A DNA stretch of 64,000 nucleotides from Candidatus Schekmanbacteria bacterium. Its GTDB lineage: Bacteria > SZUA-182. The stretch is taken from positions 1,779 to 65,778 of the forward strand of contig JACRJN010000131.1 in assembly GCA_016235675.1 (NCBI GenBank). Direction: 5' to 3'. Positions 2,361 through 57,288 of this stretch are shown here, in pieces. Numbering within the stretch: position 1 is the stretch's first letter; every line of letters starts with the position of its first letter. The notes beneath the pieces are model-generated. The model ran no database searches. It saw nothing but the letters and a program-made list of their open reading frames with translations, and was not told the origin of the DNA. The translations under genes and the position numbers were made by a program.

Positions 2361-4112
2361 ATGCAGGCAGGAAAAATAATCAAAGTGGCTGGCCCTTTGG
2401 TGGTTGCCGACGGCATGGTTGACGCCAAGATGTATGACGTGGTCAAAGTCGGCCTTGAGGAACTGATCGGCGAGATTGTGGAAATCAAAGGCGATAAAGC
2501 CTCGATTCAGGTCTACGAGGAAACGGGAGGCATCGGCCCCGGCGATCCGGTGATCACTACCGGTATGCCGCTTAGCGTCGAGTTAGGCCCCGGATTGCTG
2601 CAAAGCATTTACGACGGTATTCAGCGCCCGCTGGAATTGATCTACGGCAAGGTCGGGGATTTGATCACCCGCGGGGTTAACGTCCCCAGCCTGAATCGGG
2701 AAAAGAAATGGGCGTTTACTCCGACTGGCAAAACGGGTGATAAGGTGCAGGCCGGGGATATTTTGGGCACGCTGCCGGAAACCAGGGTTATTACCCATAA
2801 GGTGCTGGTTCCGCCCGGAATCGAGGGAGAGATCGTTAAGATTGCGGCAGGCGGCGAATACACCATTACCGATACCATCGCCCGCATTAAAACCAAAAAC
2901 GGTGAACAGGATATTTGTATGCTGCAAAAGTGGCCGGTGCGTATCAGCCGTCCCTTAAAGGGTAAGCTTTCGCCCAAAGAGCCGCTTTCCACCGGACAGC
3001 GCATTATCGACACCCTCTTTCCCCTGGCCAAGGGCGGAACGGCTTGTGTTCCCGGCCCCTTCGGTTCAGGCAAGACCGTAGTGCAGCATCAGTTGGCCAA
3101 ATGGGCATCTGCCGAGATTGTGGTTTATATCGGCTGCGGCGAGCGCGGCAACGAGATGACCGACGTTTTGATCGAACTGCCGGAGATCGAAGACCCCAGA
3201 ACCGGTGAATCGCTGATGCAGCGCACCGTTTTGATCGCCAACACCTCAAACATGCCGGTGGCCGCCCGTGAAGCCTCGGTCTATACCGGGATCACCCTGG
3301 CCGAATATTACCGCGATATGGGCTACCATGTGGCGCTGATGGCTGATTCCACCTCCCGCTGGGCGGAAGCCTTGCGCGAGATGTCGGGACGTCTGGAAGA
3401 GATGCCCGGAGAAGAAGGCTATCCGGCTTATCTGGCGACCAAGATCGCCGATTTCTACGAGCGCGCCGGTCGGGTCAACACCCTGGGCAGCAACGGCAGA
3501 GAGGGATCGATCAGCGTTATCGGAGCGGTTTCCCCTCCCGGCGGCGACATGTCCGACCCGGTGGTGCAGGCCACCCTCAAGGTGGTTAAGGTCTTCTGGG
3601 GGCTGGACGCCAATTTAGCCTACCGCCGGCATTTCCCCGCCATCAACTGGCTGCAAAGCTATTCACTGTATATGGACAACCTCAAGGATTACCTGACCGG
3701 AGAAATTGCCCGCGACTGGGTCACCATCCGCCAGAAAGCCATGGCGCTGTTACAGAAAGAGGCGGAACTGGAAGAAATCGTACGACTAATCGGCAAGGAC
3801 TCCCTCTCCCCTACCGATCAGCTAACCCTGGAAATCACCAAGATCATCCGCGAGGATTTTCTGCATCAGAACGCCTTCCACGCCCAGGACTCCTACACCT
3901 CGCTGAACAAGCAATATAACTTGCTGAAGCTGATTCTCACCGCCGAAGAACTGTTCCGCTCCGCAGTCGAAGCCAAAATTCCCTTAAAGCGCATCCTCTC
4001 CATCCCGGCCCTGGAAGAAATCGCCAAAGCCAAGTTTATCACCGAAGACAAACCGGAGGAGATCGAAGCCATCGGGCAGAGATTGAGGGAGCAGGTAGGG
4101 GGGTTGAAGTAA
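2361..4112 (+). CDS. atpA: V/A-type ATP synthase catalytic subunit A
   Basis: 583 aa with a Walker A motif GPFGSGKT and conserved A-subunit blocks (YIGCGERGNEM, SRWAEALRE). Confidence 0.95.
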   Translation: MQAGKIIKVAGPLVVADGMVDAKMYDVVKVGLEELIGEIVEIKGDKASIQVYEETGGIGPGDPVITTGMPLSVELGPGLLQSIYDGIQRPLELIYGKVGDLITRGVNVPSLNREKKWAFTPTGKTGDKVQAGDILGTLPETRVITHKVLVPPGIEGEIVKIAAGGEYTITDTIARIKTKNGEQDICMLQKWPVRISRPLKGKLSPKEPLSTGQRIIDTLFPLAKGGTACVPGPFGSGKTVVQHQLAKWASAEIVVYIGCGERGNEMTDVLIELPEIEDPRTGESLMQRTVLIANTSNMPVAAREASVYTGITLAEYYRDMGYHVALMADSTSRWAEALREMSGRLEEMPGEEGYPAYLATKIADFYERAGRVNTLGSNGREGSISVIGAVSPPGGDMSDPVVQATLKVVKVFWGLDANLAYRRHFPAINWLQSYSLYMDNLKDYLTGEIARDWVTIRQKAMALLQKEAELEEIVRLIGKDSLSPTDQLTLEITKIIREDFLHQNAFHAQDSYTSLNKQYNLLKLILTAEELFRSAVEAKIPLKRILSIPALEEIAKAKFITEDKPEEIEAIGQRLREQVGGLK

Positions 4113-4114
4113 CA

Positions 4115-4168
4115 TAGGGTAGGGTGGGCTGCGCCCACCATTTTGATGGGCACAGCCCACCCTACAGG
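4115..4168. repeat. REP-like palindromic element, family C (GTAGGGTGGGC...GCCCACCCTAC)
   Basis: Inverted repeat seen directly. Related copies at 4651..4742, 11952..12026 and 29225..29247. Confidence 0.8.
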
Positions 4169-4192
4169 CTACATGAAAAAAAGGGTTGCTTT

Positions 4193-4432
4193 GTGGAGAT
4201 AAATTTTTCTCGTCATGCCAAGAGAAGAGCCAGGTTATACAAAATCCCTGACTCAACAATTCTTAATCTTTTGGAATCGAAAATTTGGAACCAGGGAAAT
4301 CATGAGATTACAAAAATTGTTGCGGGGATTAAATACCCATTGAAAATTGTGTTTAATGTTGAAGACCATATTTTAACTGTAATAACTTGCTATCCTTTAA
4401 AAAAAGGAGCTAAGGGTGAAAGTATATTATGA
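4193..4432 (+). CDS. DUF4258 domain protein (RelE/ParE-fold toxin-like); probable GTG start
   Basis: The ORF frame continues upstream into a REP element, so a GTG at 4193 is the likely true start. HAKRRARLYKIP...ILTVITCYPLKK matches the DUF4258 signature. Overlaps the downstream DUF2283 gene. Confidence 0.5.
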   Translation: MEINFSRHAKRRARLYKIPDSTILNLLESKIWNQGNHEITKIVAGIKYPLKIVFNVEDHILTVITCYPLKKGAKGESIL

Positions 4433-4643
4433 CGACGAAGCAGACGCCCTTTATCTAAAATTGGGAGAAGAAACGCCGGAAGGGGTAATAGAGCTAGCCG
4501 AAGGGGTTAATCTGGACACCACTGCTGAAGATAAGATAGTAGGGATAGAAATTTTGAATGCCTCCAAGAAGATTGATTTAAAAACAATATTATCTTATAC
4601 CCTGGAGTTTGAAAAGGATTTAATAACCCAAGAAGCGGCCTGA
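4416..4643 (+). CDS. DUF2283 domain protein (antitoxin-like partner of DUF4258)
   Basis: 75 aa, MKVYYDDEADALYLKL...IVGIEIL typical of DUF2283. Overlaps the upstream gene. Confidence 0.55.
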   Translation: MKVYYDDEADALYLKLGEETPEGVIELAEGVNLDTTAEDKIVGIEILNASKKIDLKTILSYTLEFEKDLITQEAA

Positions 4644-4650
4644 TAGTAAC

Positions 4651-4742
4651 GTAGGGTGGGCTGTGCCCACCAAAGGCTAACCAGGGCAATTTGAACAGCG
4701 ACATATGGGCGAAAAACAAAAGGTTGGCAAAGCCCACCCTAC
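4651..4742. repeat. REP-like element, family C, with a 50-nt spacer
   Basis: GTAGGGTGGGCTGTGCCCACC ... GGCAAAGCCCACCCTAC. Confidence 0.8.
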
Positions 4743-4771
4743 ATAAATAAAACTCAAGGAGGTGAGCACCC

Positions 4772-5323
4772 ATGCAGGGTTTGGCGATAAAGCAAAAAAA
4801 ATATACTTATCAGGACTATTTAAAAACCCCGGACGATATGCGGTATGAACTAATTGAGGGAGATTTAATAATGACACCGGCGCCATATATTCGACACCAA
4901 AGAATTTCCAGTAACTTGTTTTTCAAGATGAGAGATTTCACAAGCACCAATAATTTAGGCGAGGTTTTTTACGCTCCCTGCGATGTCTACTTAGACGATG
5001 AGAATGTTGTTCAGCCGGATATACTCTTCGTTTCCAAGGAGCGTCTGGAAATTATCACGGAAAAGAATATCCAGGGTGCGCCGGATTTGGTAGTGGAAAT
5101 TGTTTCGGAAGGAAATGCTTACCGGGACACCATACAGAAAAAAAGACTATACGCCCGTTTCGGGGTGAAAGAATATTGGATAGTGGCACCGGGGGAAAAG
5201 ATGATCGAACAATATCATTTGAATAAGCAGGGTTACCAATTGATTAGGACTTATTATCATGAGGATCATCTCATATCCCAGGAATTGCAGGATTTCACGA
5301 TTGAATTGAGGGAGGTTTTTTAA
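4772..5323 (+). CDS. Uma2/DUF820 family putative endonuclease
   Basis: 183 aa with a restriction-endonuclease-like core (DLVVEIVSEGN...YARFGVKEYWIV). Good RBS AAGGAGG. Paralog of the partial ORF at 1..262. Confidence 0.7.
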   Translation: MQGLAIKQKKYTYQDYLKTPDDMRYELIEGDLIMTPAPYIRHQRISSNLFFKMRDFTSTNNLGEVFYAPCDVYLDDENVVQPDILFVSKERLEIITEKNIQGAPDLVVEIVSEGNAYRDTIQKKRLYARFGVKEYWIVAPGEKMIEQYHLNKQGYQLIRTYYHEDHLISQELQDFTIELREVF

Positions 5324-5415: not shown

Positions 5416-6816
5416 ATGCCGAAAGAATACCGAACTGTGGCCTCGGTTTCCGGACCGTTGATTTTAGTGGACAAGGTAGAAAGCATTAAATACGAAGAAC
5501 TGGTGGAAGTGGAACTGCCCGGCGAACAAATCCGTCTGGGCAAGGTACTGGAGGTCTCAGGAAATACCGCCCTGGTGCAGCTTTTCGGTACATCTACCGG
5601 CATCAATATCTATCAGAGCAAAATTCGCTTTCTGGGCAAGGGGATTGAACTGGGGGTTTCTCCCGATTTATTGGGACGGATTTTCGACGGCCTGGGACGC
5701 CCGATCGACAATGGCCCGCGCATTATCCCGGAAAAACGCCTGAACATCAACGGGAATCCGATCAACCCCTATGCCCGCGATTATCCCTCGGAGTTTATCC
5801 AGACCGGTATTTCCACCATCGACGGCCTAAATACACTGGTGCGCGGACAAAAATTGCCCATCTTCTCAGGTGCCGGTCTCCCGCACTCCCAAATGGCGGC
5901 CCAAATCGCCCGTCAATCCAAGGTTTTGGGCAAGGAAGAAGCCTTTGCCGTGGTCTTTGCCGCCATGGGCATCACCTTTGAGGAATACGAGTTTTTCCGC
6001 CAAGATTTCCAGAAATCCGGTGCGCTGGAACGCTCGGTGCTGTTCGTCAATCTGGCCAATGACCCGGCGGTAGAACGCATCGCCACCCCGCGAATGGCCC
6101 TGACCGCCGCTGAATATCTGGCATTTGAGAAGGATATGCACGTTCTGGTTATCTTAACCGATCTGACCAATTATTGCGAAGCCCTGCGCGAGGTTTCCGC
6201 CGCCCGCAAGGAAATACCCGGTCGCCGCGGTTATCCCGGTTACATGTATACCGACCTGTCCACGATTTATGAACGCGCCGGACGCATCAAGGGCAAAAAG
6301 GGATCGATCACCCAGATTCCCATTCTTACCATGCCGGAAGATGACAAAACCCATCCCATCCCGGATTTGACCGGTTATATTACCGAGGGACAAATTATCC
6401 TGGGACGGGCGATGCACCGCAAAGGCATCTATCCCCCAATCGATGTCTTGCCGTGTCTTTCCCGCTTGCGGGATAAAGGCATCGGCGAGGGCAAGACCAG
6501 GGAAGACCACGCCGGCTGGTCGAATCAATTGTTTGCCGCCTATGCCAGGGGTAAAGAGTCTGAAGAATTGGCGGTTATATTGGGTGAATCGGCTCTATCG
6601 GCAGCCGATAAAACCTTCCTTAAATTCGCCCTGGAATTTGAGCGGCGGTTTGTACAGCAAGGGGCCTATGAAGACCGGGCTATCGAGGAAACTTTGGCTA
6701 TCGGCTGGGAATTAATGGCGGCACTTCCGAAAGCCGAACTCAAACGGGTGAAAGAGGATCATATCGCTAAATATATGCCGGCGGGGAAAGAATTAGGCTT
6801 GAGGCTTGAGGCCTGA
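5416..6816 (+). CDS. atpB: V/A-type ATP synthase regulatory subunit B
   Basis: 466 aa with conserved B-subunit blocks throughout. The last codons and the stop lie inside a GGCTTGAGG tandem repeat. Confidence 0.95.
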
Positions 6817-6921
6817 GGCTTGAGTAATGAGATTTGAGGTAAAATCACAGGCAGGATGCCTGTGCTACCGTAGGGCGAATTTGTATTCGCCCTCTTTCCC
6901 TCAAGCCTCAAGTCTCAAGCC
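6796..6921. repeat. composite element between convergent atpB and the PHP gene
   Basis: (GGCTTGAGG)n and (CCTCAAGCC)n outer arms enclose a family-D half REP (CACAGGCAGGATGCCTGTGCTACC) and a GTAGGGCGAATTTGTATTCGCCCTC hairpin. Confidence 0.8.
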
Positions 6922-7573: not shown

Positions 7574-7942
7574 CTATTGAGCTAACTTAACGGTAACATT
7601 TTCAAAACGAGTCATCAATTCTTTCGCTTCCTGCATAAAACTATTCAATAAAGCGTCGCTGCAACATTGCTTACTTCTCAATTCATCACATAATTTACTG
7701 TTATCTAAATACAAGGTGATATTATTCGCGCCCATCCCCTTAGCCCTTCTTAAGGCAACTAAAAGCGCACAGGAATCCTGAATATCTTTGTTAGCCAAGG
7801 TAGCATTTTCCCGGATAATGCTCAAAAGGTTATCTTCATCATCTTTAACCATTACTTCAACGTAGCCGCGTGAATAGGGTTTTATCTGCTTTTGGCCATT
7901 TACAAATAAAATTAAGTGATTAAATCCCGCCATAGCCCTCAC
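7574..7942 (-). CDS. RNase H-like fold protein (RVT_3-like), probably catalytically degenerate
   Basis: 122 aa. Its beta1-alphaA pattern (HLILFVNGQ...DSCALLVALRRAKGMG...LYLDNSKL) resembles RNase HI/RVT_3, but the first catalytic Asp is Asn and the C-terminal Asp is missing. The gap to the downstream PHP gene is 2 nt. Confidence 0.35.
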   Translation of the reverse strand: MRAMAGFNHLILFVNGQKQIKPYSRGYVEVMVKDDEDNLLSIIRENATLANKDIQDSCALLVALRRAKGMGANNITLYLDNSKLCDELRSKQCCSDALLNSFMQEAKELMTRFENVTVKLAQ

Positions 7943-8043: not shown

Positions 8044-8184
8044 TTGGTAGCGTTCTCAATAAGAGACCTAAAGCGTCAAAAGCGAGGCAGCCTTATCGCC
8101 GAAGCAATCTCATGTGCACGCATGGAGATTGCTTCGCTTCGCTCGCAATGACGCTTCAGGTCTGCGGTATTTCTACGCTACCAA
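8044..8184. repeat. long family-E element (GGTAGCGTTCTCAAT...GTCATTGCGAG-like core...CGCTACCAA)
   Basis: Near-identical copy at 60141..60310. Shorter E cores at 9114..9183, 33191..33290, 34497..34595, 40988..41067 and 50099..50180. Confidence 0.8.
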
Positions 8185-8250: not shown

Positions 8251-8315
8251 GTAGTGCCGGGGCTTTAGCCCCGGTAGTTCAGCCCTGAAGGGCTGGAACT
8301 ACGAAACTACGAAAC
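8251..8315. repeat. REP-like element, family B (GTAGTSCCRGSSCTTTAGSSC...)
   Basis: Copies at 14451..14614, 26971..27032, 42620..42688, 51453..51598, 59990..60058, 61451..61506 and 62168..62222. Confidence 0.8.
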
Positions 8316-21573: not shown

Positions 21574-21593
21574 ATAGGGGCGAAAATTCTATT

Positions 21594-21813
21594 AAGACGT
21601 AGCGCAGGGCTTTAGCCCCAATACTGTTCCCCTAACGTAGCGCAGACCTTTAGGTCTGCTCCGGAGTGCTCACAAAGCCACCCCATAAGCAGGGATAGAA
21701 GCCCTGCGCTACGTCTTAAGTGAACGGTATTGGCTTTAGCCCTGCTTCCGGACACACATCAAACCCGGTAGCCGGTAGCAGACCTAAAGGTCTGCACTAC
21801 GTTAGGGGAACAG
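21594..21813. repeat. nested family-A REP cluster downstream of fbp
   Basis: Four A-type half sites arranged as two nested inverted pairs with GTTCCCCTAACGTAG outer arms. Confidence 0.8.
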
Positions 21814-21826
21814 TAAAGGGGCGGCT

Positions 21827-22093
21827 ATGACTAAATCAGCTTTATTCTCTTATCTTGAAGGATATAAGCTGGCTGATAAAATCATTAAAAAGGAAAAAAA
21901 ACAGCGGCTTTCTCAAATGACGTTTGAAGAATCCTTGCTTGAGTTTAATAACCTTTGCCTAACCTGGGAATCAGTTTCCAACAAAGAAGGAATGGATAAT
22001 TTGGAAAAGCGAAAAATTACCTTCCTTATCGAACAAAGAGCTCGCTTAGATAAAGCCGGCAGCCGGAAAGTGAAAAATGAATCAATACGCTAA
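21827..22093 (+). CDS. hypothetical protein, possible partner of the downstream nucleotidyltransferase
   Basis: 88 aa overlapping the next ORF by 17 nt. No recognisable family. Confidence 0.35.
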   Translation: MTKSALFSYLEGYKLADKIIKKEKKQRLSQMTFEESLLEFNNLCLTWESVSNKEGMDNLEKRKITFLIEQRARLDKAGSRKVKNESIR

Positions 22094-22652
22094 AGCTATC
22101 GATGAATTGCATGAATTTTTTGACCGGGAGGGAATATCTTATGCCATTATTGGAGGCATTGCTCTACAATATTGGGGAGAGCCTCGTTTTACCAGAGATA
22201 TAGACGTCACCGTTCTGGTTGATTTAGGTAAAGATGAAATAATCCTGCAAAAAATTCTTTCTGTATTCACGCCCCGCATCTCTGATGCCTTGAAATTTGC
22301 CCTGCAAAATCGTGTTTGTTTGGTTAGAAGCCGGGATGGGATCGAAATAGACATTTCTCTGGGTATTCCCGGATACGAAGAGAAAATGATGGGGCGTACG
22401 GTAGAATGTAATCTGGGCGGCAGCTATAATGTTAAGATTTGCTCGGCGGAAGACCTGATCATTCATAAAGCCGTCGCCGGAAGACCGCAGGATTTAGCTG
22501 ATATTGAGAGCATAATAATGCGCCAGGGTGAAAAATTGGATGAAGCATATATCCGTTTTTGGTTGGATGAGTTTTCTCTCTTGCTTGAAACCAAAGAAGT
22601 ATTGGAGCGGTTCGAAAATCCCTGGCGGCGGTTGCTTGGGGAAGATGAATAA
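22077..22652 (+). CDS. nucleotidyltransferase-fold protein (AbiEii/MenT-like toxin-type)
   Basis: The GGIALQYWGEPRFTRDIDV motif (GG-x-AL...R-x-T-x-D-I-D) and the C-terminal AGRPQDLADIESI are characteristic of this nucleotidyltransferase family. Confidence 0.5.
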   Translation: MNQYAKAIDELHEFFDREGISYAIIGGIALQYWGEPRFTRDIDVTVLVDLGKDEIILQKILSVFTPRISDALKFALQNRVCLVRSRDGIEIDISLGIPGYEEKMMGRTVECNLGGSYNVKICSAEDLIIHKAVAGRPQDLADIESIIMRQGEKLDEAYIRFWLDEFSLLLETKEVLERFENPWRRLLGEDE

Positions 22653-25181: not shown

Positions 25182-26936
25182 TCACCCTTTTCTCCAAATA
25201 GCATAATCATTGATGACTAATAAATCAAGCTTTGATTTTAATAAAACGTCAACAGCCTGATCGCTGTTTTCCACAATGGGGTGACCGTGCAAATTAAATG
25301 AGGTATTCAGCACACAGGGAATCCCGGTCTTTTGGTAAAAGCCCTCGACAATCTGATAGAAATCCGGATAGCGCTCTTTGGTCACCGTCTCAGCACGGGC
25401 GGTAAAATCGGACTGATGCAGGGCGCAGGCGATACTCTCCCTTTGGTCTTCCACGGTTTCGAAGGCAAACATCATATACGGCGATCCTTGAGATTTTAAA
25501 GCGTTGGGAATCCTGATCAATTGCCCGGCTTTGTCCCATAACATCGCCGGAGCAAAGGGCATCCAGAAATCCCGGTTCTTTATCGCCCGGTTGATTTTGC
25601 CCACCACATTTAAATTGGAAGGGTTAGCCAGAATGGATCGATTTCCCAGCGCTCTTGCGCCGAATTCCATCGGCCCGGAACAGCGCGCCACAATCTTGCC
25701 GGCAACCAATTGCCCGACAATGTAAGCGTTGATGTCCTTGATTCGCTCGTATTCGATCTGCCCCCGGTATTTTTCTAAAACCGCGGGCAAATCCCCGCCG
25801 ATAACAGACCCCAGGCAATAGGATTTTAAATTGTCCACCTTTTTTTCTATATGGGTGTTGTACAGATAAAACCCGGCGCCGAACACATTGGATTCATCCC
25901 CGCAGGAAGGGAAAACATCGATGTATTCCACCTCCGGCATCTGAGACAAAAGCATATTGGTCTTGACGTTCATAAAAACACCGCCGCTGCACAGAATTTT
26001 CCCGACCCCGTATTTTTTGATCGCCCCCCGAATCCAGGCGCCGAGAATCTCCTCGGTAAAGGCTTGCAGACCGGCAGCCACATTATCAAAACGCGCCCTT
26101 TTCAAATCATTTAACAAATGGCGCATGAAAATTTCATGATATAACAATTTGGAATTTTCAAAGCGGGTATCGTCGTCGGCCAGTTTGAGAAACTGGCTGA
26201 AATACTTTTTATATTTGTCTTGATGTTTTTTGTCAACATAAGGAGCCAAACCCATTAATTTATATTCATGTTCGTGAGGGGTAAAACCCAGATGATGGGT
26301 CACCGCCGAATACATATTCCCGATCGAATAGCAAGGAGAGCTTGACAACAACTGCAAGTTTCCGCCCTGCCCCAGATACAGCGCGCTGGTATAGCGATCC
26401 CCGCCGCCGTCTAAGGTAAACACCAGGTACTTTTCATCCAGATGCCTGGCCAGTCCGTAATAAGCCGCCGAGGCATGGCACAAATGGTGCTCGACGCGCT
26501 CGATTCTGTCCGGCCTAAACCCCAGGTGCGCCAAATAATCCAAATCTTTTTCTTTGCCGCGGTTAATTTGCTGACGCGAGCGCAGATAGACCCCGAACAG
26601 GAAATCGCTGGACTTGATATTTTTTCTTAGCTCATTGCGTACTCTGGTGATATTGATCGGATTGCCGCAAGCCCGCCGATAATGCCGCTCATAGTTATTG
26701 TAAAAGGTGGTGCGGTTCAGCTCCCGATAAATGGCGTTAGCAATACCGACATATTCCACCTCAGATGGCCGGACGATTCCGTTTTTGATGATATAATCCA
26801 GCGCTTTATAGGGGAAGCCCATCCAGTTTTTGGTTCTAATCAGACGCTCCTCTTCCATACAAAACACCGGTTTGCCGTTCTGAAAAACCCCCAGCGAACT
26901 GCCTAACCCCGAATTTATGGTCACTATTGTGCTCAT
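25182..26936 (-). CDS. carbamoyltransferase (NodU/CmcH family)
   Basis: About 585 aa with an N-terminal Kae1/YgjD-like ASKHA fold (TIVTINSGLGSS...CMEEERL) and a C-terminal carbamoyltransferase domain. ATG at 26936 with a GGAGAAGG RBS. Confidence 0.85.
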   Translation of the reverse strand: MSTIVTINSGLGSSLGVFQNGKPVFCMEEERLIRTKNWMGFPYKALDYIIKNGIVRPSEVEYVGIANAIYRELNRTTFYNNYERHYRRACGNPINITRVRNELRKNIKSSDFLFGVYLRSRQQINRGKEKDLDYLAHLGFRPDRIERVEHHLCHASAAYYGLARHLDEKYLVFTLDGGGDRYTSALYLGQGGNLQLLSSSPCYSIGNMYSAVTHHLGFTPHEHEYKLMGLAPYVDKKHQDKYKKYFSQFLKLADDDTRFENSKLLYHEIFMRHLLNDLKRARFDNVAAGLQAFTEEILGAWIRGAIKKYGVGKILCSGGVFMNVKTNMLLSQMPEVEYIDVFPSCGDESNVFGAGFYLYNTHIEKKVDNLKSYCLGSVIGGDLPAVLEKYRGQIEYERIKDINAYIVGQLVAGKIVARCSGPMEFGARALGNRSILANPSNLNVVGKINRAIKNRDFWMPFAPAMLWDKAGQLIRIPNALKSQGSPYMMFAFETVEDQRESIACALHQSDFTARAETVTKERYPDFYQIVEGFYQKTGIPCVLNTSFNLHGHPIVENSDQAVDVLLKSKLDLLVINDYAIWRKG

Positions 26937-27085
26937 GCCTTCTCCTGACAATAAACCCCACCTTGAATTTCGTAGTCCCAGCCCTTCAGGGCTGATCTTC
27001 CAGGGCTAAAGCCCTGGCACTACGGCTACGGCAGGAATGTTTGGTGGTATCCTGCCTAACCCCGAATTTATGGCCACTATCGTGC

Positions 27086-28216
27086 TCATGCCTTCTCCAA
27101 TACCTGTATATACAACTCTTGGGTAGTTTTCAGCATCTGCCGCAGGGAAAACCGCTCTTCGATAATTCTTCTCCCGCGCTTTCCAAAAGCCTCCGCCAGA
27201 TTCTTATCCGCTAACACCCGGTTAATCGCCGCAACCAGCGGCTCAGGCTGATTGGAGGGGACTAAAAACCCGCTGACACCGTCTTCAACCAATTCAGAGC
27301 AGCCGCCGACGTTAGTTGCGACTACCGGCTTTCGGGCGGCCATCGCCTCCATGATCGCACCCGGCAGACCCTCGGAGATTGAGGTAAGCACCAGAACATC
27401 GAAAACCTGCAAAATCCGGGGGATGTCATCCCGCGTACCCAGAAAGAAAAAACGATCCCTTAGGGAAAAATCCTTCAGCCAGCCGGCCTTGGCGGTCTGA
27501 TCCAAACCCTGGCCGGCCAGGACAAAACAGAGATGCTCTTTTTGAGCGGCTAAAATTTTGGCGGCCTGAATAAATAAGGGAATGTTCTTGGCCACAGCAT
27601 CCCGGCTGATTATTCCCACTACCTGAGAATCCGACGGCAAGCCCAACTGCGCCTTAATTATTCCCCTGTCTTCGGTCAATTTAAACAGGTCTGGATCGAT
27701 CCCGTTAAAAATAGTTATAATCTTGCTTTCATCCAACCCAAGATTATCGACCAGGTAATCCTTTAAATCCAGGGAATTGACCATGACGATCGCTGCTGAA
27801 TTAAGTGCTAGGGTATCGAAAAATTTTCTTAAAGCCGAGGGACTTTTCCGATAGCCCAGCACCGAGGGGATAAAAGCCTTGATGCCCGCAAGCTTACAGG
27901 CAAAATAGCTGTACACGACAGCAATATACAACAGGGCATGAACGATTTGAATTTTTTCTTTTTTAAAGAGCCAGGCCAGTTTAAATAAGCGGATTAAATC
28001 GAAGTTGGATTTTCTTTTAAAGGTATAGACCTTGATCCCCTGCTTCGTCAGCTTTTCCCCGTAAGGGTAATCCTTCTCCGACAGGCAAAACACTGTGGGA
28101 TTAAACCGGGTGCGATCCAGGCGAATCACCATTTCATATAGCTGCTGCTTTTCCGCCCCGCCCCAGGATAACTGCCCGATGACGAGCGCCAGATTTATCG
28201 GTTGATCTATTTGCAT
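27086..28216 (-). CDS. glycosyltransferase family 4
   Basis: 376 aa with a GT-B fold and an EGLPGAIMEAMAARKPVVAT motif (the EX7E region). Confidence 0.8.
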   Translation of the reverse strand: MQIDQPINLALVIGQLSWGGAEKQQLYEMVIRLDRTRFNPTVFCLSEKDYPYGEKLTKQGIKVYTFKRKSNFDLIRLFKLAWLFKKEKIQIVHALLYIAVVYSYFACKLAGIKAFIPSVLGYRKSPSALRKFFDTLALNSAAIVMVNSLDLKDYLVDNLGLDESKIITIFNGIDPDLFKLTEDRGIIKAQLGLPSDSQVVGIISRDAVAKNIPLFIQAAKILAAQKEHLCFVLAGQGLDQTAKAGWLKDFSLRDRFFFLGTRDDIPRILQVFDVLVLTSISEGLPGAIMEAMAARKPVVATNVGGCSELVEDGVSGFLVPSNQPEPLVAAINRVLADKNLAEAFGKRGRRIIEERFSLRQMLKTTQELYIQVLEKA

Positions 28217-40957: not shown

Positions 40958-41098
40958 ATATTCTTTAAAACTCTAAGAAAGGTAAAAGCGTCATTGCGCG
41001 CGAAAGCGAAGCAATCTTCGTTCGTGCGTCTGAGATTGCTTCGGCAATAAAGCCGCCTCGCAATGACATTTGCATTATCCATTGTCAATTGTCCATTA

Positions 41099-42544: not shown

Positions 42545-42688
42545 GTTGTCAGTTGTCAGTTGTCGGTTTTAATTCTTTAACTGACAACCGACAACTGACA
42601 ACTTTTTTTCATCACCAGCCGTAGTCCCAGCCCTTTAGGGCTGAATTTCCGGGGCTAAAGCCCCGGCACTACGGCTACGGCTACGGCT
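42545..42688. repeat. family-I palindrome (GTTGTCAGTTGTCGG...CCGACAACTGACAAC) followed by a family-B REP
   Basis: I-like copies at 41075..41100, 52935..52993, 55307..55383 and 61507..61548. Confidence 0.75.
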
Positions 42689-42705
42689 GACAATCGCCTG
42701 TACCG

Positions 42706-43446
42706 TCAGCCGCTTTTCTTCTCCATCACCAGCTTAAAAGCGCTTCTGGTAAAAAATGCACCATACCGGTTGGCTAAAATCTTTTCAAAGCTTTTTAATT
42801 TCGCCGGAACCAACCAATCTACCCGCGGGTTAGTGTAGCCGCATTGCTTCAGCAGTTCGATCCAAAGATCGGGCGTTTGATGCTTATGCCATTCAATCGT
42901 AGAGGATAGAGGGTTTTTCATTCCCAGTGTGTCGAAGAAATTATAGGGAGAACAGTCCAGGATTACAATTTTCCCGCCATTTTTGGTAATGCCGCTTAAT
43001 TTAGTGAAGATGGACAGGTATTTTTCCCGCGCCGCCCGGCTGGTTCTTAATCCGACACAGGCTTTCTCATCTAAATGATTGATGGAACTGTGCGATAAAA
43101 TCAGATCGAACGAAAGCCCGTTGGGTGCAAATTCCTGCAAGGTTTGCGGATAGCAAACGATATTCGCTAATTTAAGGGCCGCGGCCATTTTGTTGAATAC
43201 CGCGGCGGAACTGCTGCTGCTCCCGGCCTCTTCCGGCTCAAGACCGATGACCTGCGCCGCTCCCCGGCAGGCACTGTAAATGCTCATCAATCCCGTCCCG
43301 CAACCGATGTCCAGGATGTTTTTGTCTGCAAGATCGACGCCGTCTAAAAAGCGGTCGATATACCCTTGCGCCAAAGCCGGTGTTTTAAATCCGATTTCCT
43401 GCACCGCTAAAGATAAAAAATGATCTGTTAATGTTTGGCTGGTCAA
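42706..43446 (-). CDS. class I SAM-dependent methyltransferase
   Basis: ILDIGCGTG motif I. 246 aa. Confidence 0.7.
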   Translation of the reverse strand: MTSQTLTDHFLSLAVQEIGFKTPALAQGYIDRFLDGVDLADKNILDIGCGTGLMSIYSACRGAAQVIGLEPEEAGSSSSSAAVFNKMAAALKLANIVCYPQTLQEFAPNGLSFDLILSHSSINHLDEKACVGLRTSRAAREKYLSIFTKLSGITKNGGKIVILDCSPYNFFDTLGMKNPLSSTIEWHKHQTPDLWIELLKQCGYTNPRVDWLVPAKLKSFEKILANRYGAFFTRSAFKLVMEKKSG

Positions 43447-45866: not shown

Positions 45867-46103
45867 ATGATTATTAAAAAAAATATTCAAAAGGAAACAT
45901 CGTTGGAATTGCCTTGGCATTTATTAGAAAAAGCCCATCTTAAGGGGAAAATAAATATTATTGTGGAAGAAAATGAAATCCTGATTAAAAAACAAACTAA
46001 AAAATCTAAGGTTGTCGATGAAATGATCGGTCTGGGAAAGGGTATTTTTAGTGAAAACTCGCTAACTCTTCAGAAAAAAATTCGGGAGGATTGGAAACTG
46101 TGA
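45867..46103 (+). CDS. AbrB/SpoVT-like antitoxin (VapB-like)
   Basis: 78 aa overlapping the downstream PIN gene by 13 nt. Low GC. Confidence 0.45.
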   Translation: MIIKKNIQKETSLELPWHLLEKAHLKGKINIIVEENEILIKKQTKKSKVVDEMIGLGKGIFSENSLTLQKKIREDWKL

Positions 46104-46531
46104 AAAGAATTGGTCTCGATACCAATATTTTTATGAGCGTTTTTTTGGAAGAAAAGGGGAAATTAGAAGCTTGCCTGGCGATTTTACAAAATATTCATGA
46201 CGGTATTCTGGAAGGGATTATCAGTGTAATTACATTAGTAGAAATAGCCGTACTTTTTTACCAAAAAAATGAATATCTAAAAGCTAAGAAAGCCTTATCC
46301 CTTATCAACTCTCTTTCAAATATTGCCATTATTGACATAACTCCACATTTGGCTTTAAAAATAGCTGCTATAAAAACTTCAGATAAATTATCTGTTGCGG
46401 ATGCAATTATTCTTGCCACAGCGGTACACGCATCTGCGGAAGCTTTTTTAACGTATGACCATGACTTTGCCAAAGTAAAAACCATCAGGTGCATTAAACC
46501 GGAAGATTATCTTCAAGAGATGAATATTTGA
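46091..46531 (+). CDS. PIN-domain ribonuclease toxin (VapC-like)
   Basis: Acidic PIN residues are in place (LDTNIF, ...E..., DAIILATA, TYDHDF). Confidence 0.75.
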   Translation: METVKRIGLDTNIFMSVFLEEKGKLEACLAILQNIHDGILEGIISVITLVEIAVLFYQKNEYLKAKKALSLINSLSNIAIIDITPHLALKIAAIKTSDKLSVADAIILATAVHASAEAFLTYDHDFAKVKTIRCIKPEDYLQEMNI

Positions 46532-51375: not shown

Positions 51376-51684
51376 CCACGAAGGCCACAAAGCACACGAA
51401 GAAAAAATTTCGAGAGTGTTCACCTAAAGATAGATATTTATATATTTAAAAACGTAGTCCCGTGGCTTTAGCCGCGTATTTTCAGCCCCTTAGGGCTGCA
51501 AAAAAAGGTGTGTTCGTATGGAACGCGCCGAAAGTATTGAGAGTCATAATTGCAGGGCTAACGCCCTGAAGTTCAGCCCTGAAGGGCTGGGACTACGATA
51601 TTACTGGGACTACGATATTATATTGATGTTTTGGCCAATCCCCAGGCCGAAAAATTTCTTCGTGCTCTTCGTGTGCTTCGTGGT
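51376..51684. repeat. composite: family-F outer arms enclosing several family-B REP units
   Basis: F arms at 51376..51403 and 51657..51684. B-type half sites at 51453..51498 and 51553..51598. Confidence 0.8.
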
Positions 51685-55399: not shown

Positions 55400-57136
55400 A
55401 TGTCCATAAACAAACCTAAAAATTGGGATTTTTACCCCCCGAATCCCGAATTGCAAAAGAAACTCCAATCGGAATTAGGGATAAAATCCCGATTGGCCGA
55501 TCTGATGATCAACCGCGGCATCGAAACCGTCGCCGACGCCGGGATTTTTTTATGGGGGACTTTAGCGGAATTACACAGCCCATTTATCATGAAAGGGATG
55601 ACCACCGCCGCCGGAATCATTCTTAACGCCGTCCGGCAAAAAGATAAAATCTGTGTTTACGGGGATTACGACGTCGATGGATTAACCGGTGTGGCTTTGC
55701 TGTTCAAAACCCTGAGTTCGCTCCAGGCCGACGTGATCTTTTACATCCCCCACCGGCTGGAAGAAGGTTACAGCCTGAATTGTCAGGCGCTGGACGAGAT
55801 CAAAAACGCCTCCGTCAATTTAATCGTAACCGTGGACTGCGGCATCACCTCCTGCAACGAAGTCAATTACGCCAATAAATTGGGGATGCAGGTAATTATC
55901 AGCGACCATCATCAATTGGGAAATAATCTGCCTGCCGCCGCGGCCATTCTCAATCCCTTACAACCCGGATGTCCCTATCCTTTTAAAAAACTGTCCGGCG
56001 TAGGTATTGCCTTGAAATTAGCGCAGGCCATATTGGCGCAATCCGGTTTAATCCGCGAGGCGGCTGATCTTTTAAATAATGATTTGGACCTGGTAGCCCT
56101 GGGAACAATAGCCGATATGGTACCTTTAATGGGGGAAAACAGGATTTTAGTAAAATATGGTCTTAAACAATTGACAAATTCCTCCAAATCAGGTATAAAA
56201 GCATTAAAGCAGGTTACAGGTCTGGCTATTGACCAGGAAGTTAGCGTAGTAGACGTAGCATATAAGCTAGCCCCCCGGTTAAATGCCACCGGCAGAATGA
56301 GCGACCCTCAGCAGGGGTTGGAACTGCTGGTATCCAATAACGACACTGAAAGCGCTAATCTGGCTAAGCAAATAGAAGAAAACAATGTTCAGCGCAAAGC
56401 TATCGAAGGGATAATCCTGGAACAAGCCAGGACGCAATTGCAGCAAGCTATCGAGAACAACGCTCCGCCAAAAGCGATTATTTTAGCGGCCGAGGGCTGG
56501 CATATCGGCGTAATCGGAATCGTCGCCTCCCGCATAGTGGAAGAGTATTTCCGCCCGACGATCATTATCGGGCTTACATCGGGTGTCGGCAAAGGTTCAG
56601 GCCGAAGTATCCGTAACTTGCACCTGCAGCAAGTTTTATTGAAATGTCAGGATTTACTGCTGGAGTTCGGCGGCCATGAAATGGCGGCGGGCTTGAGTAT
56701 TCTGGAAGAAAATATACCCCGGTTCAAAGAGCGCATCAATCAACTGGTGGAAGATTCTTTACAGGAAAACGACTTTATACCCAGCTATAATCTGGACGGC
56801 GTGGTGGAATTAAAAGAGCTGACCTTGTCGTTTTGGCAGGAAATACAATTAATGGAGCCGTTCGGCATAGGCAATCCGGCGCCGTTATATTGTGCACGCC
56901 ATTTAGAAATAATGCCGCCGCTGCGCTTAGTGGGCAATAACCATTTAAAATTGAAGCTCAGGCAAAACGACCTGACTATGGAAGCCATCGGTTTTAATAT
57001 GGGAGATTGGCTCTCATTTTTAAATACTCCGGGCAATAAATCGATAGATGTGATTTTCCGCCCCCAGTTGAATGTCTGGCAAGGCAAAGAGCAATTGCAA
57101 TTGTCCCTGCAGGACATAGTGCAGACCAGGGATTAA
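55400..57136 (+). CDS. recJ: single-stranded-DNA-specific exonuclease RecJ
   Basis: DHH motifs (YGDYDVDG, DHH) and a DHHA1 domain. The start is moved to MSINKPK. Confidence 0.9.
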   Translation: MSINKPKNWDFYPPNPELQKKLQSELGIKSRLADLMINRGIETVADAGIFLWGTLAELHSPFIMKGMTTAAGIILNAVRQKDKICVYGDYDVDGLTGVALLFKTLSSLQADVIFYIPHRLEEGYSLNCQALDEIKNASVNLIVTVDCGITSCNEVNYANKLGMQVIISDHHQLGNNLPAAAAILNPLQPGCPYPFKKLSGVGIALKLAQAILAQSGLIREAADLLNNDLDLVALGTIADMVPLMGENRILVKYGLKQLTNSSKSGIKALKQVTGLAIDQEVSVVDVAYKLAPRLNATGRMSDPQQGLELLVSNNDTESANLAKQIEENNVQRKAIEGIILEQARTQLQQAIENNAPPKAIILAAEGWHIGVIGIVASRIVEEYFRPTIIIGLTSGVGKGSGRSIRNLHLQQVLLKCQDLLLEFGGHEMAAGLSILEENIPRFKERINQLVEDSLQENDFIPSYNLDGVVELKELTLSFWQEIQLMEPFGIGNPAPLYCARHLEIMPPLRLVGNNHLKLKLRQNDLTMEAIGFNMGDWLSFLNTPGNKSIDVIFRPQLNVWQGKEQLQLSLQDIVQTRD

Positions 57137-57138
57137 GG

Positions 57139-57260
57139 TTCACTTAAGACGTAGCGCAGGGCTTTAGCCCTGCTTATGGCGGCTTTGGTAGGCACTCCGG
57201 AGCAGACCTAAAGGTCTGCTCTACGTTAAGTGAACAGTCTGCGCTACGTTAAGTGAACAG
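57139..57260. repeat. family-A REP element with duplicated GTTAAGTGAACAG arm
   Basis: GTTCACTTAAGACGTAGCGCAGGGCTTTAGCCCTGC...GCAGACCTAAAGGTCTGCTCTACGTTAAGTGAACAG. Confidence 0.8.
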
Positions 57261-57288
57261 TATTGGGATTAAGGAGGGGTTTGGGGGA

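Follow-up and report, generated by a model that had tools for sequence, protein, structure and literature searches.

How can a repeat element lie at a junction where two genes probably once overlapped, with both genes intact and a copy of the junction on each side of the repeat? This question is raised by a locus on a contig of a metagenome-assembled genome (MAG) of Candidatus Schekmanbacteria, in which a REPIN-like repeat separates a gene for a GT4-family glycosyltransferase (GT4) from a carbamoyltransferase gene. The analysis covered 64 kb of this contig, hereafter called the window. The route by which REPs and REPINs are thought to move resembles that of IS200/IS605 and makes no such larger duplication (PMC2817692), and a 47-nt junction copy on each side is unusual for a repeat type thought to insert without target duplication. 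Insertion of REPs and REPINs is assumed to be IS200/IS605-like and free of footprints.

Results

Duplicated gene start on both sides of the repeat

A repeat search of positions 26500-27500 reported a sole family of direct repeats, formed by 26899-26945 and 27052-27098, which are 47 nt long, identical at 45 of 47 positions (96%) and spaced 153 nt from start to start. Both mismatches are T/C differences, located at repeat positions 23 and 30. The initial annotation of this DNA had described a 47-bp duplication with two mismatches, and the search returned identical coordinates and the sequence as quoted. The chance expectation for 47-mers with at most two mismatches and at most 600 nt apart is about 2e-17 in 64 kb. 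When the whole window was scanned for local direct repeats of 20 nt or more, seeded by an exact 11-mer and separated by no more than 600 nt, only four were found: the 47-nt pair, a 54-nt tandem repeat, repeats of a TPR protein and two copies of another REP. The 47-nt pair was the only such repeat near any REP within the window, and we regard the duplication flanking the repeat element as a real, confirmed observation.

Both copies are read on the minus strand. The proximal copy (26899..26945) contains the Shine-Dalgarno sequence (SD) GGAGAAGG at 26945..26938, an ATG at 26936..26934 and carbamoyltransferase codons 1-12 (MSTIVTINSGLG), while the distal copy (27052..27098) contains the final GT4 codons GAG AAG GCA, the TGA, an overlapping ATG and 12 relic codons (MSTIVAINSGLG). 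GGAGAAGG, the ATG and MSTIV(T/A)INSGLG are present in both, and the earlier reading of each copy as the ribosome-binding site, start and first 12 codons of the carbamoyltransferase gene agrees with this. According to a comparison with homologues, the Ala at residue 6 of the distal copy is the family consensus, IL(A/S)IN, and the proximal copy has Thr at this site.

Composition and distribution of the inserted repeat

The segment between the copies is 106 nt long (26946-27051) and runs in the order GATACCACC...REPIN...AAATTCAAGGTGGGGTTTATTGTCA. Its first 25 nt (TGACAATAAACCCCACCTTGAATTT, 26946..26970) occur nowhere else in the window; their minus-strand sequence ends with ..TTATTGTCA and resembles the ATTGTCAG leader beside two other copies of the same repeat family, family B. 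Next comes the REPIN-like core (26971..27031), composed of two inverted GTAG-headed hairpins, CGTAGTC-CCAGCCCTTCAGGGCTGA ... CCAGGGCTAAAGCCCTGG-CACTACGGCTACG, and the last part is a tail (27032..27051, the GCAGGAATGTTTGGTGGTATC region), in which GGCAGG..GAATGTTT is common to the B copy at about 8.25 kb (c8k) and the final ~9 nt (GGTGGTATC) are unique. The initial annotation had placed a REP at 26971..27032 between the copies; the core is indeed there, but the inserted segment measures 106 nt and includes more than the 62-nt REP. Conservation within the B family does not extend to about 25 nt at one side of the insert and about 9-20 nt at the other. Neither 47-nt copy adjoins the conserved REPIN, and about 34 nt of the insert are non-family sequence.

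The core (~26968-27032) recurs at about 8.25, 42.6, 51.6, 60.0, 61.5 and 62.2 kb, which makes seven copies in the window, and matches to the B-family motif number 15-17 in the window versus 0.07-0.17 expected. The family has a GTAG-headed palindrome, CGTAGTC-CCAGCCCTTCAGGGCTG and, inverted, CGTAGTG-CCAGGGCTTTAGCCCTGG, and the GTAG head agrees with published REP lists (PMC2817692). The inverted doublet is conserved in 6-7 copies, and in the predicted fold of the core (z = -2.9) an outer CGTAG/CTACG stem encloses two hairpins. B elements are small and non-coding, their ends (CGTAGTSCCAGSSC) are inverted copies of each other, and all seven copies in the 64-kb window lie between ORFs or at ORF ends. 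Several junctions of the gene cluster have REPs in their spacers. Small slippage-type tandem duplications occur at the ends of the B REPINs (CTACGG one to three times, TTCGTAGT twice at c8k and a 14-nt head duplication in the copy at 51.6 kb, c51k). The window has another repeat family (GTAGGGTGGGCTGCGCCCACC) that is nearly the same as REPs reported for Haemophilus in association with RAYTs (PMC2817692).

An Rfam search found only a tmRNA in the window and nothing at the junction locus. No Y1_Tnp match was found in the 44 ORFs of the window, and no transposase or RAYT was found within the 64 kb. The REPIN doublet pattern had 0 matches in collections of metagenome and viral contigs and the unique insert flank had 0 matches in viral contigs; the single-REP pattern matched 15 unrelated high-GC contigs, which is uninformative on B-family insertion. 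A function of the insert as a terminator or promoter was rejected, as it has no terminator-like site and one weak promoter-like match that was no better than in shuffled sequences. Likewise rejected was a derivation of the unique flanks from a third, diverged 47-mer that the REPIN had split, since alignment scores were not above those of shuffled sequences (p = 0.08-0.36).

Gene ends at the junction

The GT4 gene (27086..28216, minus strand, 376 aa) ends with TTG GAG AAG GCA TGA, and the distal ATG (27089..27087) overlaps its TGA (27088..27086) as ATGA, at the coordinates where the initial annotation had this overlap. The carbamoyltransferase gene (25182..26936, minus strand, 584 aa, Pfam Carbam_trans_N/C) begins at the proximal ATG, and the protein read from it is identical to the NCBI-annotated P0001 (584 aa), in line with the earlier claim that the proximal copy starts the real gene. 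Judged from the sequence, the functional carbamoyltransferase start is in the proximal copy. The distal ATG now opens just a relic ORF of 27 codons (MSTIVAINSGLGRIPPNIPAVAVVPGL*, 27006..27089, minus strand), which is in frame with the carbamoyltransferase, starts 153 nt upstream of the real ATG and ends at a TAG (27008..27006) in the REPIN hairpin loop. A regulatory role for the relic ORF as a leader peptide or attenuator finds no comparative support and is only remotely possible, the sole candidate for masking the SD being a weak 6-bp AU-rich stem.

When the insert and one 47-nt copy are removed in silico, an intact ATGA-coupled GT4/carbamoyltransferase junction is restored. The length of the GT4 C-terminus is normal compared to homologues, and a carbamoyltransferase homologue of 57% identity also starts at an ATGA, but with its own, different upstream gene. 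Together with the consensus Ala of the distal copy, these observations agree with the initial annotation in which the ATGA was seen as the ancestral coupled junction, and we retain this as probable: the two genes probably once overlapped at the junction that now holds the repeat. It is highly improbable that the genes had instead never overlapped, with the REPIN placed in an original spacer and the GT4 3' end later receiving a 47-nt patch copied from the carbamoyltransferase start. In favour of this explanation, an intergenic location is usual for REP-type elements, and several junctions of this cluster have REPs in spacers. Without the distal copy, however, GT4 would extend about 22 codons into the REPIN, whereas its homologues end 2-7 residues past a conserved LY..I/L motif, exactly at the present GT4 stop. 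Moreover, the distal copy retains the consensus residue, and no mechanism favours such a patch.

Direct repeats at other elements

Repeats next to other elements of the window bear on how the duplication was formed. The B copy at 42.6 kb (c42k; 42602..42733 with flanks, minus strand) consists of a REPIN at 42620-42680 and a tail of about 30 nt, with CATCACCAGC at 42610-42619 and 42724-42733. The left repeat adjoins the REPIN, and the repeat is exact over 10 nt and reaches about 21 nt if an indel of one codon is allowed. Its minus-strand reading is GCTGGTGATG(GAG)AAGAAAAG, which corresponds to the last codons of a methyltransferase gene (42706..43446), found again after the REPIN. An A-type, MITE-like element (57139-57264; 57129..57274 with flanks, plus strand) has a perfect 10-nt direct repeat (GGGATTAAGG), of which the left one contains the TAA stop of a recJ-like gene and the right one contributes to the following gene's ribosome-binding site (AAGGAGG). 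The genes that meet at these two elements are a methyltransferase and an exosortase gene (42.6 kb) and recJ and a cytochrome gene (57.13 kb), while the B copy at 61.5 kb lies at an fmt/ubiX-like junction. Compared to random positions, direct repeats anchored at the element boundaries gave p=0.0035 for c42k and p=0.0035 for the A-type element at 57.1 kb, and the expectation of the initial annotation that other repeat copies would have flanking duplications was thus borne out at these two elements. For the six other B copies the Fisher combined p was 0.017, and with A added to B it was 4e-4. Lengths of flanking repeats vary from about 8 to 47 nt, two copies show none, and individually convincing repeats are present at only two other copies, where they are 10-21 nt and not 47.

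These repeats, together with the composition of the insert, weigh on whether a transposase was involved at all. The segment could have been templated when a replication fork stalled at a hairpin and microhomology-mediated template switching took place: the nascent strand would have copied about 106 nt of another REPIN locus with its non-family flanks and returned 47 nt back, in one replication error. We consider this rather unlikely. The ~34 nt of non-family sequence without another copy in the window would fit a donor REPIN with its local flanks, small slippage-type tandem duplications are common at REPIN ends here, and the REPIN clusters of Pseudomonas fluorescens SBW25 consist of the REPIN and its flanks repeated in tandem (PMC3116915). 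In addition, the 47-nt copy ends with a sequence (GGTTAGGCAG) similar to the REPIN tail (GGCTACGGCAG), and the two are base-paired in the predicted fold; this microhomology was, however, identified post hoc, and no donor locus is seen within the 64 kb. Furthermore, template switching alone leaves unexplained the perfect 10-nt repeat at both ends of the A-type element and the repeat adjoining c42k.

Relatives and assemblies

No empty, REP-free site was found among relatives, as the closest homologues are 57-59% identical and non-syntenic. Scanning genome contigs with the carbamoyltransferase gave a best identity of 42%, and in a protein database the MAG's own protein was followed by best matches of 57% (carbamoyltransferase) and 59% (GT4). 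The neighbourhoods of P0002, P0003, P0005, P0122 and P0124 are not syntenic at the GT4/carbamoyltransferase junction. Exact look-ups of the carbamoyltransferase in the Logan protein set (584- and 589-aa versions) gave no match, nor did its N-terminal 161 aa as a protein query.

An independent Logan contig (L081) reproduces GT4, the distal copy, the insert tail and the REPIN head, and the junction between the insert and the proximal copy is present in one MAG assembly only. It could be asked if the two copies came from two haplotypes or loci and were joined via the high-copy REPIN during assembly. The contig was assembled from a metagenome, the REPIN is a repeat that interrupts the short-k Logan assembly, the Logan protein set does not include the full carbamoyltransferase, and the copies are separated by two SNP-like differences, all of which would suit an assembly or strain-mixture artefact. 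We nevertheless find it decidedly improbable, as each junction of a copy with the unique insert must exist in real molecules and the distal one was reproduced by an independent assembler. Even if the copies were on two molecules, a 47-nt duplication beside the same REPIN would need explaining; moreover, the length of 47 nt is not that of a k-mer overlap used by assemblers, and the insert consists of real unique sequence.

Discussion

Our preferred reading, to which we give about an even chance, is a single duplicative insertion of the REPIN-like segment into the coupled junction with an unusually long target duplication. According to this reading, GT4 and the carbamoyltransferase, as parts of a polysaccharide cluster, would originally have been translationally coupled with the ATG over the TGA (ATGA) and the carbamoyltransferase Shine-Dalgarno sequence within the last GT4 codons. 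A 106-nt segment around the B-family REPIN/MITE-like double hairpin would then have been inserted at the junction in a single event, during which the target strands may have been broken 47 nt apart and the gaps filled, giving a 47-nt target-site duplication. The duplicated block would begin with the SD, include the stop/start overlap and end at codon 12, so that the upstream copy would still terminate GT4 and the downstream copy would give the carbamoyltransferase its SD, ATG and N-terminus. Both genes are intact because the duplicated block has this extent. Insertions without duplication would inactivate one of the genes and be lost, and therefore selection explains the form that is seen. As to the enzymology, widely staggered cuts and replication template switching are candidates. 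Against the long duplication speak the ~25 and ~9 nt of unique sequence, which simple transposition of the B family would not explain.

The other possibility raised in the initial annotation was that the repeat damaged the carbamoyltransferase 5' end or the GT4 3' end and a later local duplication of 47 nt restored the gene. The two alternatives are not formally separable, and the final structure is compatible also with two steps, the mismatches at 2 of 47 positions meaning that the copies are not brand new. Such a course would, however, require a deleterious intermediate and a second event with exact end points, and because it would have to leap over the insert, the duplication could not be a simple tandem one. 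The sequence itself gives no reason to assume two events, and we consider them improbable.

If the single duplicative insertion is correct, the relic ORF would now be the one coupled to GT4, the carbamoyltransferase would initiate independently 153 nt downstream, and the operon mRNA would gain a stable intercistronic hairpin. The direct repeats of 47 nt around a palindrome would make precise loss by replication slippage easy, leaving a single TTGGAGAAGGCATGAGCAC and no insert. The locus is thus predicted to be naturally reversible and possibly polymorphic. It also suggests that a compact, coupled operon junction can accept a mobile element when the stop of the first gene and the ribosome-binding site, start and N-terminus of the second are restored by the duplication. 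GT4 and the carbamoyltransferase would be uncoupled by the insertion. Annotators should note that gene callers can be misled by the relic start at the ATGA junction. A REPIN-like copy within a 47-nt duplication and shorter analogues in the same genome would be a footprint pointing to a different or additional insertion route. As a tentative and somewhat doubtful generalisation, GTAG-headed REPIN-like families of this Schekmanbacteria genome may move without the duplication-free "peel and paste" that REPIN/RAYT systems are assumed to use and leave variable target duplications of about 8-47 bp with filler at one end, by which they would colonise overlapping or tight junctions harmlessly and be lost precisely by slippage.

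In many respects the B element is like the known REPs and REPINs, which are mobilised by RAYTs, IS200/IS605-like Y1 transposases: it has two inverted GTAG-headed hairpins of 20-25 nt within a larger hairpin fold, and it is high in copy number and mostly located between genes. In contrast to them, this copy has the 47-nt direct duplication and non-family filler and c42k has 10-21 nt, whereas the IS200/IS605 route makes none, and no RAYT was found in the 64 kb. Similarity to MITEs (Correia and ERIC-type elements) is seen in the small size, non-coding nature, inverted ends, flanking direct repeats of the target and positions within operons and at the ends of genes; with its 10-bp duplication, the A-type element at 57.1 kb has the appearance of a textbook MITE. 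However, MITE duplications are short and fixed for each family, while here they span about 8-47 nt and the extra sequence at one end varies. Our reading has a single well-known precedent in prokaryotes, the very long target duplications of variable length at IS1549/IS1634 insertions, and the 10, ~21 and 47 nt at the three elements fit their range of 8-514 bp (PMC2266710). Unlike these autonomous DDE elements of 1.5-2 kb, the elements studied here have GTAG-headed hairpins, and no such transposase or matching ends were found in the window.

A further parallel is offered by MIRU-type intercistronic repeats of mycobacteria, which are located in operons and carry a small ORF that overlaps the upstream stop. 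The relic ORF resembles them in overlapping the upstream GT4 stop (ATGA). In MIRUs the ORF overlaps also the downstream start, by which coupling is kept, whereas 72 nt separate the end of the relic ORF (27006) from the proximal ATG, and the relic ORF is not a part of the repeat but a leftover of the carbamoyltransferase's own start.

Results

Between 26700 and 27300 there is a single direct-repeat family, consisting of a proximal copy at the carbamoyltransferase start (26899-26945) and a distal copy at the end of the upstream glycosyltransferase gene (27052-27098). As the initial annotation had described, this is a 47-nt duplication with two mismatches (45/47 identical, start-to-start 153 nt). 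The chance expectation of a comparable pair, at most 600 nt apart anywhere in the 64 kb, is about 2e-17, and scanning the whole window for local direct repeats of 20 nt or more gave only four, the other three being a 54-nt tandem repeat, a set within a gene for a TPR protein, and a pair of copies of a different REP. Thus, the 47-mer is real and is the sole long duplication adjoining a REP in the window. Near the window end, a tandem duplication with a period of 54 nt (51 nt, three mismatches) occupies 63661-63765.

Both genes lie on the minus strand and encode a GT4-family glycosyltransferase (GT4; 27086..28216; Pfam Glyco_transf_4 and Glycos_transf_1) and a carbamoyltransferase (25182..26936; Carbam_trans_N and Carbam_trans_C). 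The surrounding surface-polysaccharide cluster also includes Wzy, DegT, Bac_transf, a PglD-like acetyltransferase, more GT4s and an AMP-binding enzyme. The GT4 gene ends in TTG GAG AAG GCA TGA, and the claimed overlap of the distal ATG (27089..27087) with this TGA as ATGA was confirmed. Today the distal ATG opens only a 27-codon relic, MSTIVAINSGLGRIPPNIPAVAVVPGL*, whose stop (TAG, 27008..27006) is within the loop of one REPIN hairpin. The proximal copy provides GGAGAAGG, ATG 26936..26934 and MSTIVTINSGLG, and translation from this ATG gives exactly the 584-aa protein annotated at NCBI (Candidatus Schekmanbacteria MAG, 65.9-kb contig), in agreement with the earlier view that the real gene starts here. 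The two ATGs share a frame, and one stop separates them.

The copy-insert-copy order, in which removal of the insert and one copy restores the ATGA junction exactly, is the anatomy of a target-site duplication. This restoration and comparison with homologues give indirect support for an ancestrally ATGA-coupled junction. The GT4 C-terminus stops where those of homologues stop, 2-7 residues past the conserved LY..(I/L) motif, and without the distal copy its frame would extend about 22 codons into the REPIN. A 57%-identical carbamoyltransferase homologue has the same layout, with the SD in the upstream gene and ATGA, next to a different upstream gene. At residue 6 the relic encodes Ala and the live gene encodes Thr, and since homologues have IL(A/S)IN, Ala is likely the older state. 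The closest carbamoyltransferase match in the genome collection is at best 42% identical, and the best relatives in a 5.8-billion-protein collection are 57% (carbamoyltransferase) and 59% (GT4) identical; the gene neighbourhoods of those relatives are different, and no REP-free syntenic relative was found in the collections searched.

It is very unlikely that the locus is an assembly chimera joined through the REPIN, as this needs two real molecules, each joining the 47-mer to unique sequence of the insert. A 1281-nt Logan contig, from an independent assembly of run SRR12113407, encodes exactly the same GT4 protein. It matches the window at every base from GT4 through the distal copy and the insert tail into the REPIN head, and it ends inside the REPIN, so the distal junction is reproduced by a different assembler. 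The carbamoyltransferase is absent from the Logan gene set; the proximal junction therefore comes from the MAG contig alone, which speaks for a chimera.

The initial annotation had placed a B-type REP between the copies; the REP is present (26971-27031), but the inserted segment is 106 nt (26946-27051) and more than the REP. The unit recurs at about 8.25, 42.6, 51.6, 60.0, 61.5 and 62.2 kb (copies c8k, c42k, c51k, c60k, c61k and c62k; the studied copy is c27k), with the aligned consensus CGTAGTC-CCAGCCCTTYAGGGCTGA-N5-CCRGGGCTAAAGCCCYGG-CACTACGG(CTACGG)n. Its two hairpins, each with a GTAG head, are inverted relative to one another as in a REPIN, and the predicted fold agrees. Beyond CGTAG at one end and CTACGG at the other, homology to the family is lost. 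Neither the 25-nt part TGACAATAAACCCCACCTTGAATTT nor the last ~9 nt, GGTGGTATC, has a second copy within the window, so the insert exceeds the REP, and the conserved core is not in contact with either 47-nt copy. The insert shares GGCAGG..GAATGTTT with c8k. Small tandem duplications occur at REPIN ends, namely TTCGTAGT twice at c8k (8297-8312), CTACGG three times at c42k (42667-42684) and twice at c27k and c60k, and 14 nt of head plus flank (TATCGTAGTCCCAG) at c51k (51590-51625), which suggests slippage at hairpin bases.

An exact 11-mer-seed scan gave no flanking repeats at other REP copies, and a boundary-anchored search detected them at some, so that the proposed check for duplications around other B copies was positive (c42k; weaker at c8k, c61k and c60k). 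At c42k (core 42620-42680; whole structure 42602-42733), CATCACCAGC abuts one side and recurs 43 nt past the other end. On the coding strand it reads GCTGGTGATG GAG AAG AAA AG, the last codons of a methyltransferase gene (42706..43446; ...LVMEKKSG*), and after the REPIN GCTGGTGATG AAA AAA AG, a repeat of ~21 nt that differs by one codon indel and a single mismatch. A distance of 114 nt keeps the two copies in frame, and because the present TGA (42708..42706) sits in the inserted tail, the insertion probably replaced the original C-terminus (..LVMKKSCQLSVVS*). A MITE-like A-type element at 57139-57264 (57129-57274 with flanks) has long inverted ends (TTCACTTAAGACGTAG...CTACGTTAAGTGAACAGT) and lies between two perfect 10-nt copies of GGGATTAAGG; the left copy holds the TAA stop of a recJ-like gene, and the right one provides the beginning of the following gene's ribosome-binding site (AAGGAGG). 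This is the theme of the 47-nt duplication at conventional size. Against 4000 random positions, p=0.0035 was obtained for each of these two elements; an A-family element near 16 kb also has weaker repeats, and combining the tests by Fisher's method gives p=0.017 over the six other B copies and 4e-4 once the A elements are included. In B copies with repeats, one repeat abuts the ...GGGACTACG end and a leader of 4-27 nt parts the other from the CGTAGTGCC end, conserved in the inner 8-12 nt only (AAACATTCC..TGC in c27k and c8k; ATTGTCAG in c42k and c61k). The studied locus is one clean, well-documented case, and two further elements in the window support it.

The ATTGTCAG motif belongs to heptamer repeats (GTTGTCA/ATTGTCN)n at 42556-42612 and 41068-41098, which form a long hairpin in the methyltransferase-exosortase interval; beside these, it occurs next to the heads of c42k and c61k, and the 106-nt insert has it at its edge. 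A methionyl-tRNA formyltransferase ORF (60522..61490) terminates within c61k (61452-61505), and REPIN sequence thus provides its final ~13 codons and stop. A tmRNA gene (62293-62660; Rfam, 194.9 bits) follows c62k (62168-62222) by ~70 nt.

By one count the window has at least five GTAG-headed repeat families, elsewhere given as at least five short-repeat families, four of them GTAG-headed. Family D (GTAGGGTGGGCTGCGCCCACC; 4119, 11952, 29227) is nearly identical to RAYT-associated REPs tabulated for Haemophilus (PMC2817692). Family E is found at 6846, 14382, 28405, 29088, 29195, 29894 and 35891, family A at 16001, 16890, 21592-21814, 57142 and 59841, and family C (GTCATTGCGAG...GAGATTGCTTCG...CTCGCAATGAC) at 8075, 9104, 33199, 34526, 40990, 50153 and 60190, nested at 8.1, 34.5 and 60.2 kb in a larger inverted-repeat element (TTGGTAGCGTTCTCAAT...CTACGCTACCAA). 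The single-REP motif CGTAGTGCCGGGGCTTTAGCCCCGG recurs in an unrelated metagenome, on long contigs of high GC (L088-L101; Ga0209118_..., JGI12636J13339_...), so a near-identical GTAG-headed hairpin is used by a very different organism. About 1.3 kb separates the subunit genes A (2361..4112) and B (5416..6816) of a V/A-type ATPase, and the stretch between them (4119-5323), which holds two direct copies of REP GTAGGGTGGGCTGCGCCCACCA (4119-4140, 4651-4672) together with an orphan ORF and the gene for a Uma2-family endonuclease (4772..5323), looks like an insertion into the operon. Small defence/toxin-type genes are dispersed among housekeeping genes (22077-22652, 587-949, 46091-46531, 7574-7942), including an AbiEii-like nucleotidyltransferase, a DUF5615/PIN-like gene, a PIN domain gene and an RVT_3 (RNase H-like) 122-aa ORF beside REP clusters.

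Discussion

The best explanation, to which we give about an even chance, is one insertion event in which both target strands would have been opened 47 nt apart and the gaps filled in, leaving the 47-nt target-site duplication around the insert. A non-duplicating insertion in the SD/ATGA region, where 16 nt are critical, would destroy one gene, and survivorship would thus explain why a long duplication is seen here. Long and variable duplications (8-514 bp) have been described for IS1549 and IS1634, so far with no mechanistic model (PMC2266710). Against such staggered opening, duplications of this kind do not arise in the canonical REPIN/IS200-type route (PMC2817692), ~34 nt of the insert are non-family, and no transposase or RAYT was found within the 64-kb window. 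The main rival, a transposase-free templated insertion via replication template switching at hairpins, is possible but clearly less probable. The non-family flanks inside the insert fit it, as do the many slippage duplications at REPIN ends (CTACGG one to three times, the doubled c8k motif, the c51k head), and REPIN clusters in P. fluorescens have been reported as tandem repeats of the REPIN together with its flanks (PMC3116915). A two-step rescue is improbable, and an original spacer with a patch added later is the least probable of all.

In the present arrangement, GT4 termination would now be coupled to the relic peptide, whose ribosomes would unwind half of the REPIN, and the carbamoyltransferase would have to initiate from its own SD, 72 nt past the relic stop. 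The intercistronic RNA is predicted to fold stably (-61 kcal/mol, 176 nt, z = -2.7), and the region has no terminator-like site or credible promoter. Slipped-strand deletion occurs between direct repeats flanking palindromes, and therefore the 47-nt repeats should permit frequent precise loss of the insert, restoring the coupling.

Compared with known systems, the B core passes the structural tests of REP/REPIN membership (GTAG head, inverted doublet, copy number and extragenic position), whereas the duplication-free insertion expected of them contrasts with the 47-nt repeat here. Inverted ends and flanking repeats resemble MITEs, but the repeat length here is not fixed. The likeness to IS1549/IS1634 is only in the long, variable duplication. 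The element is also unlike MIRU, as its small ORF stops short of the downstream start.
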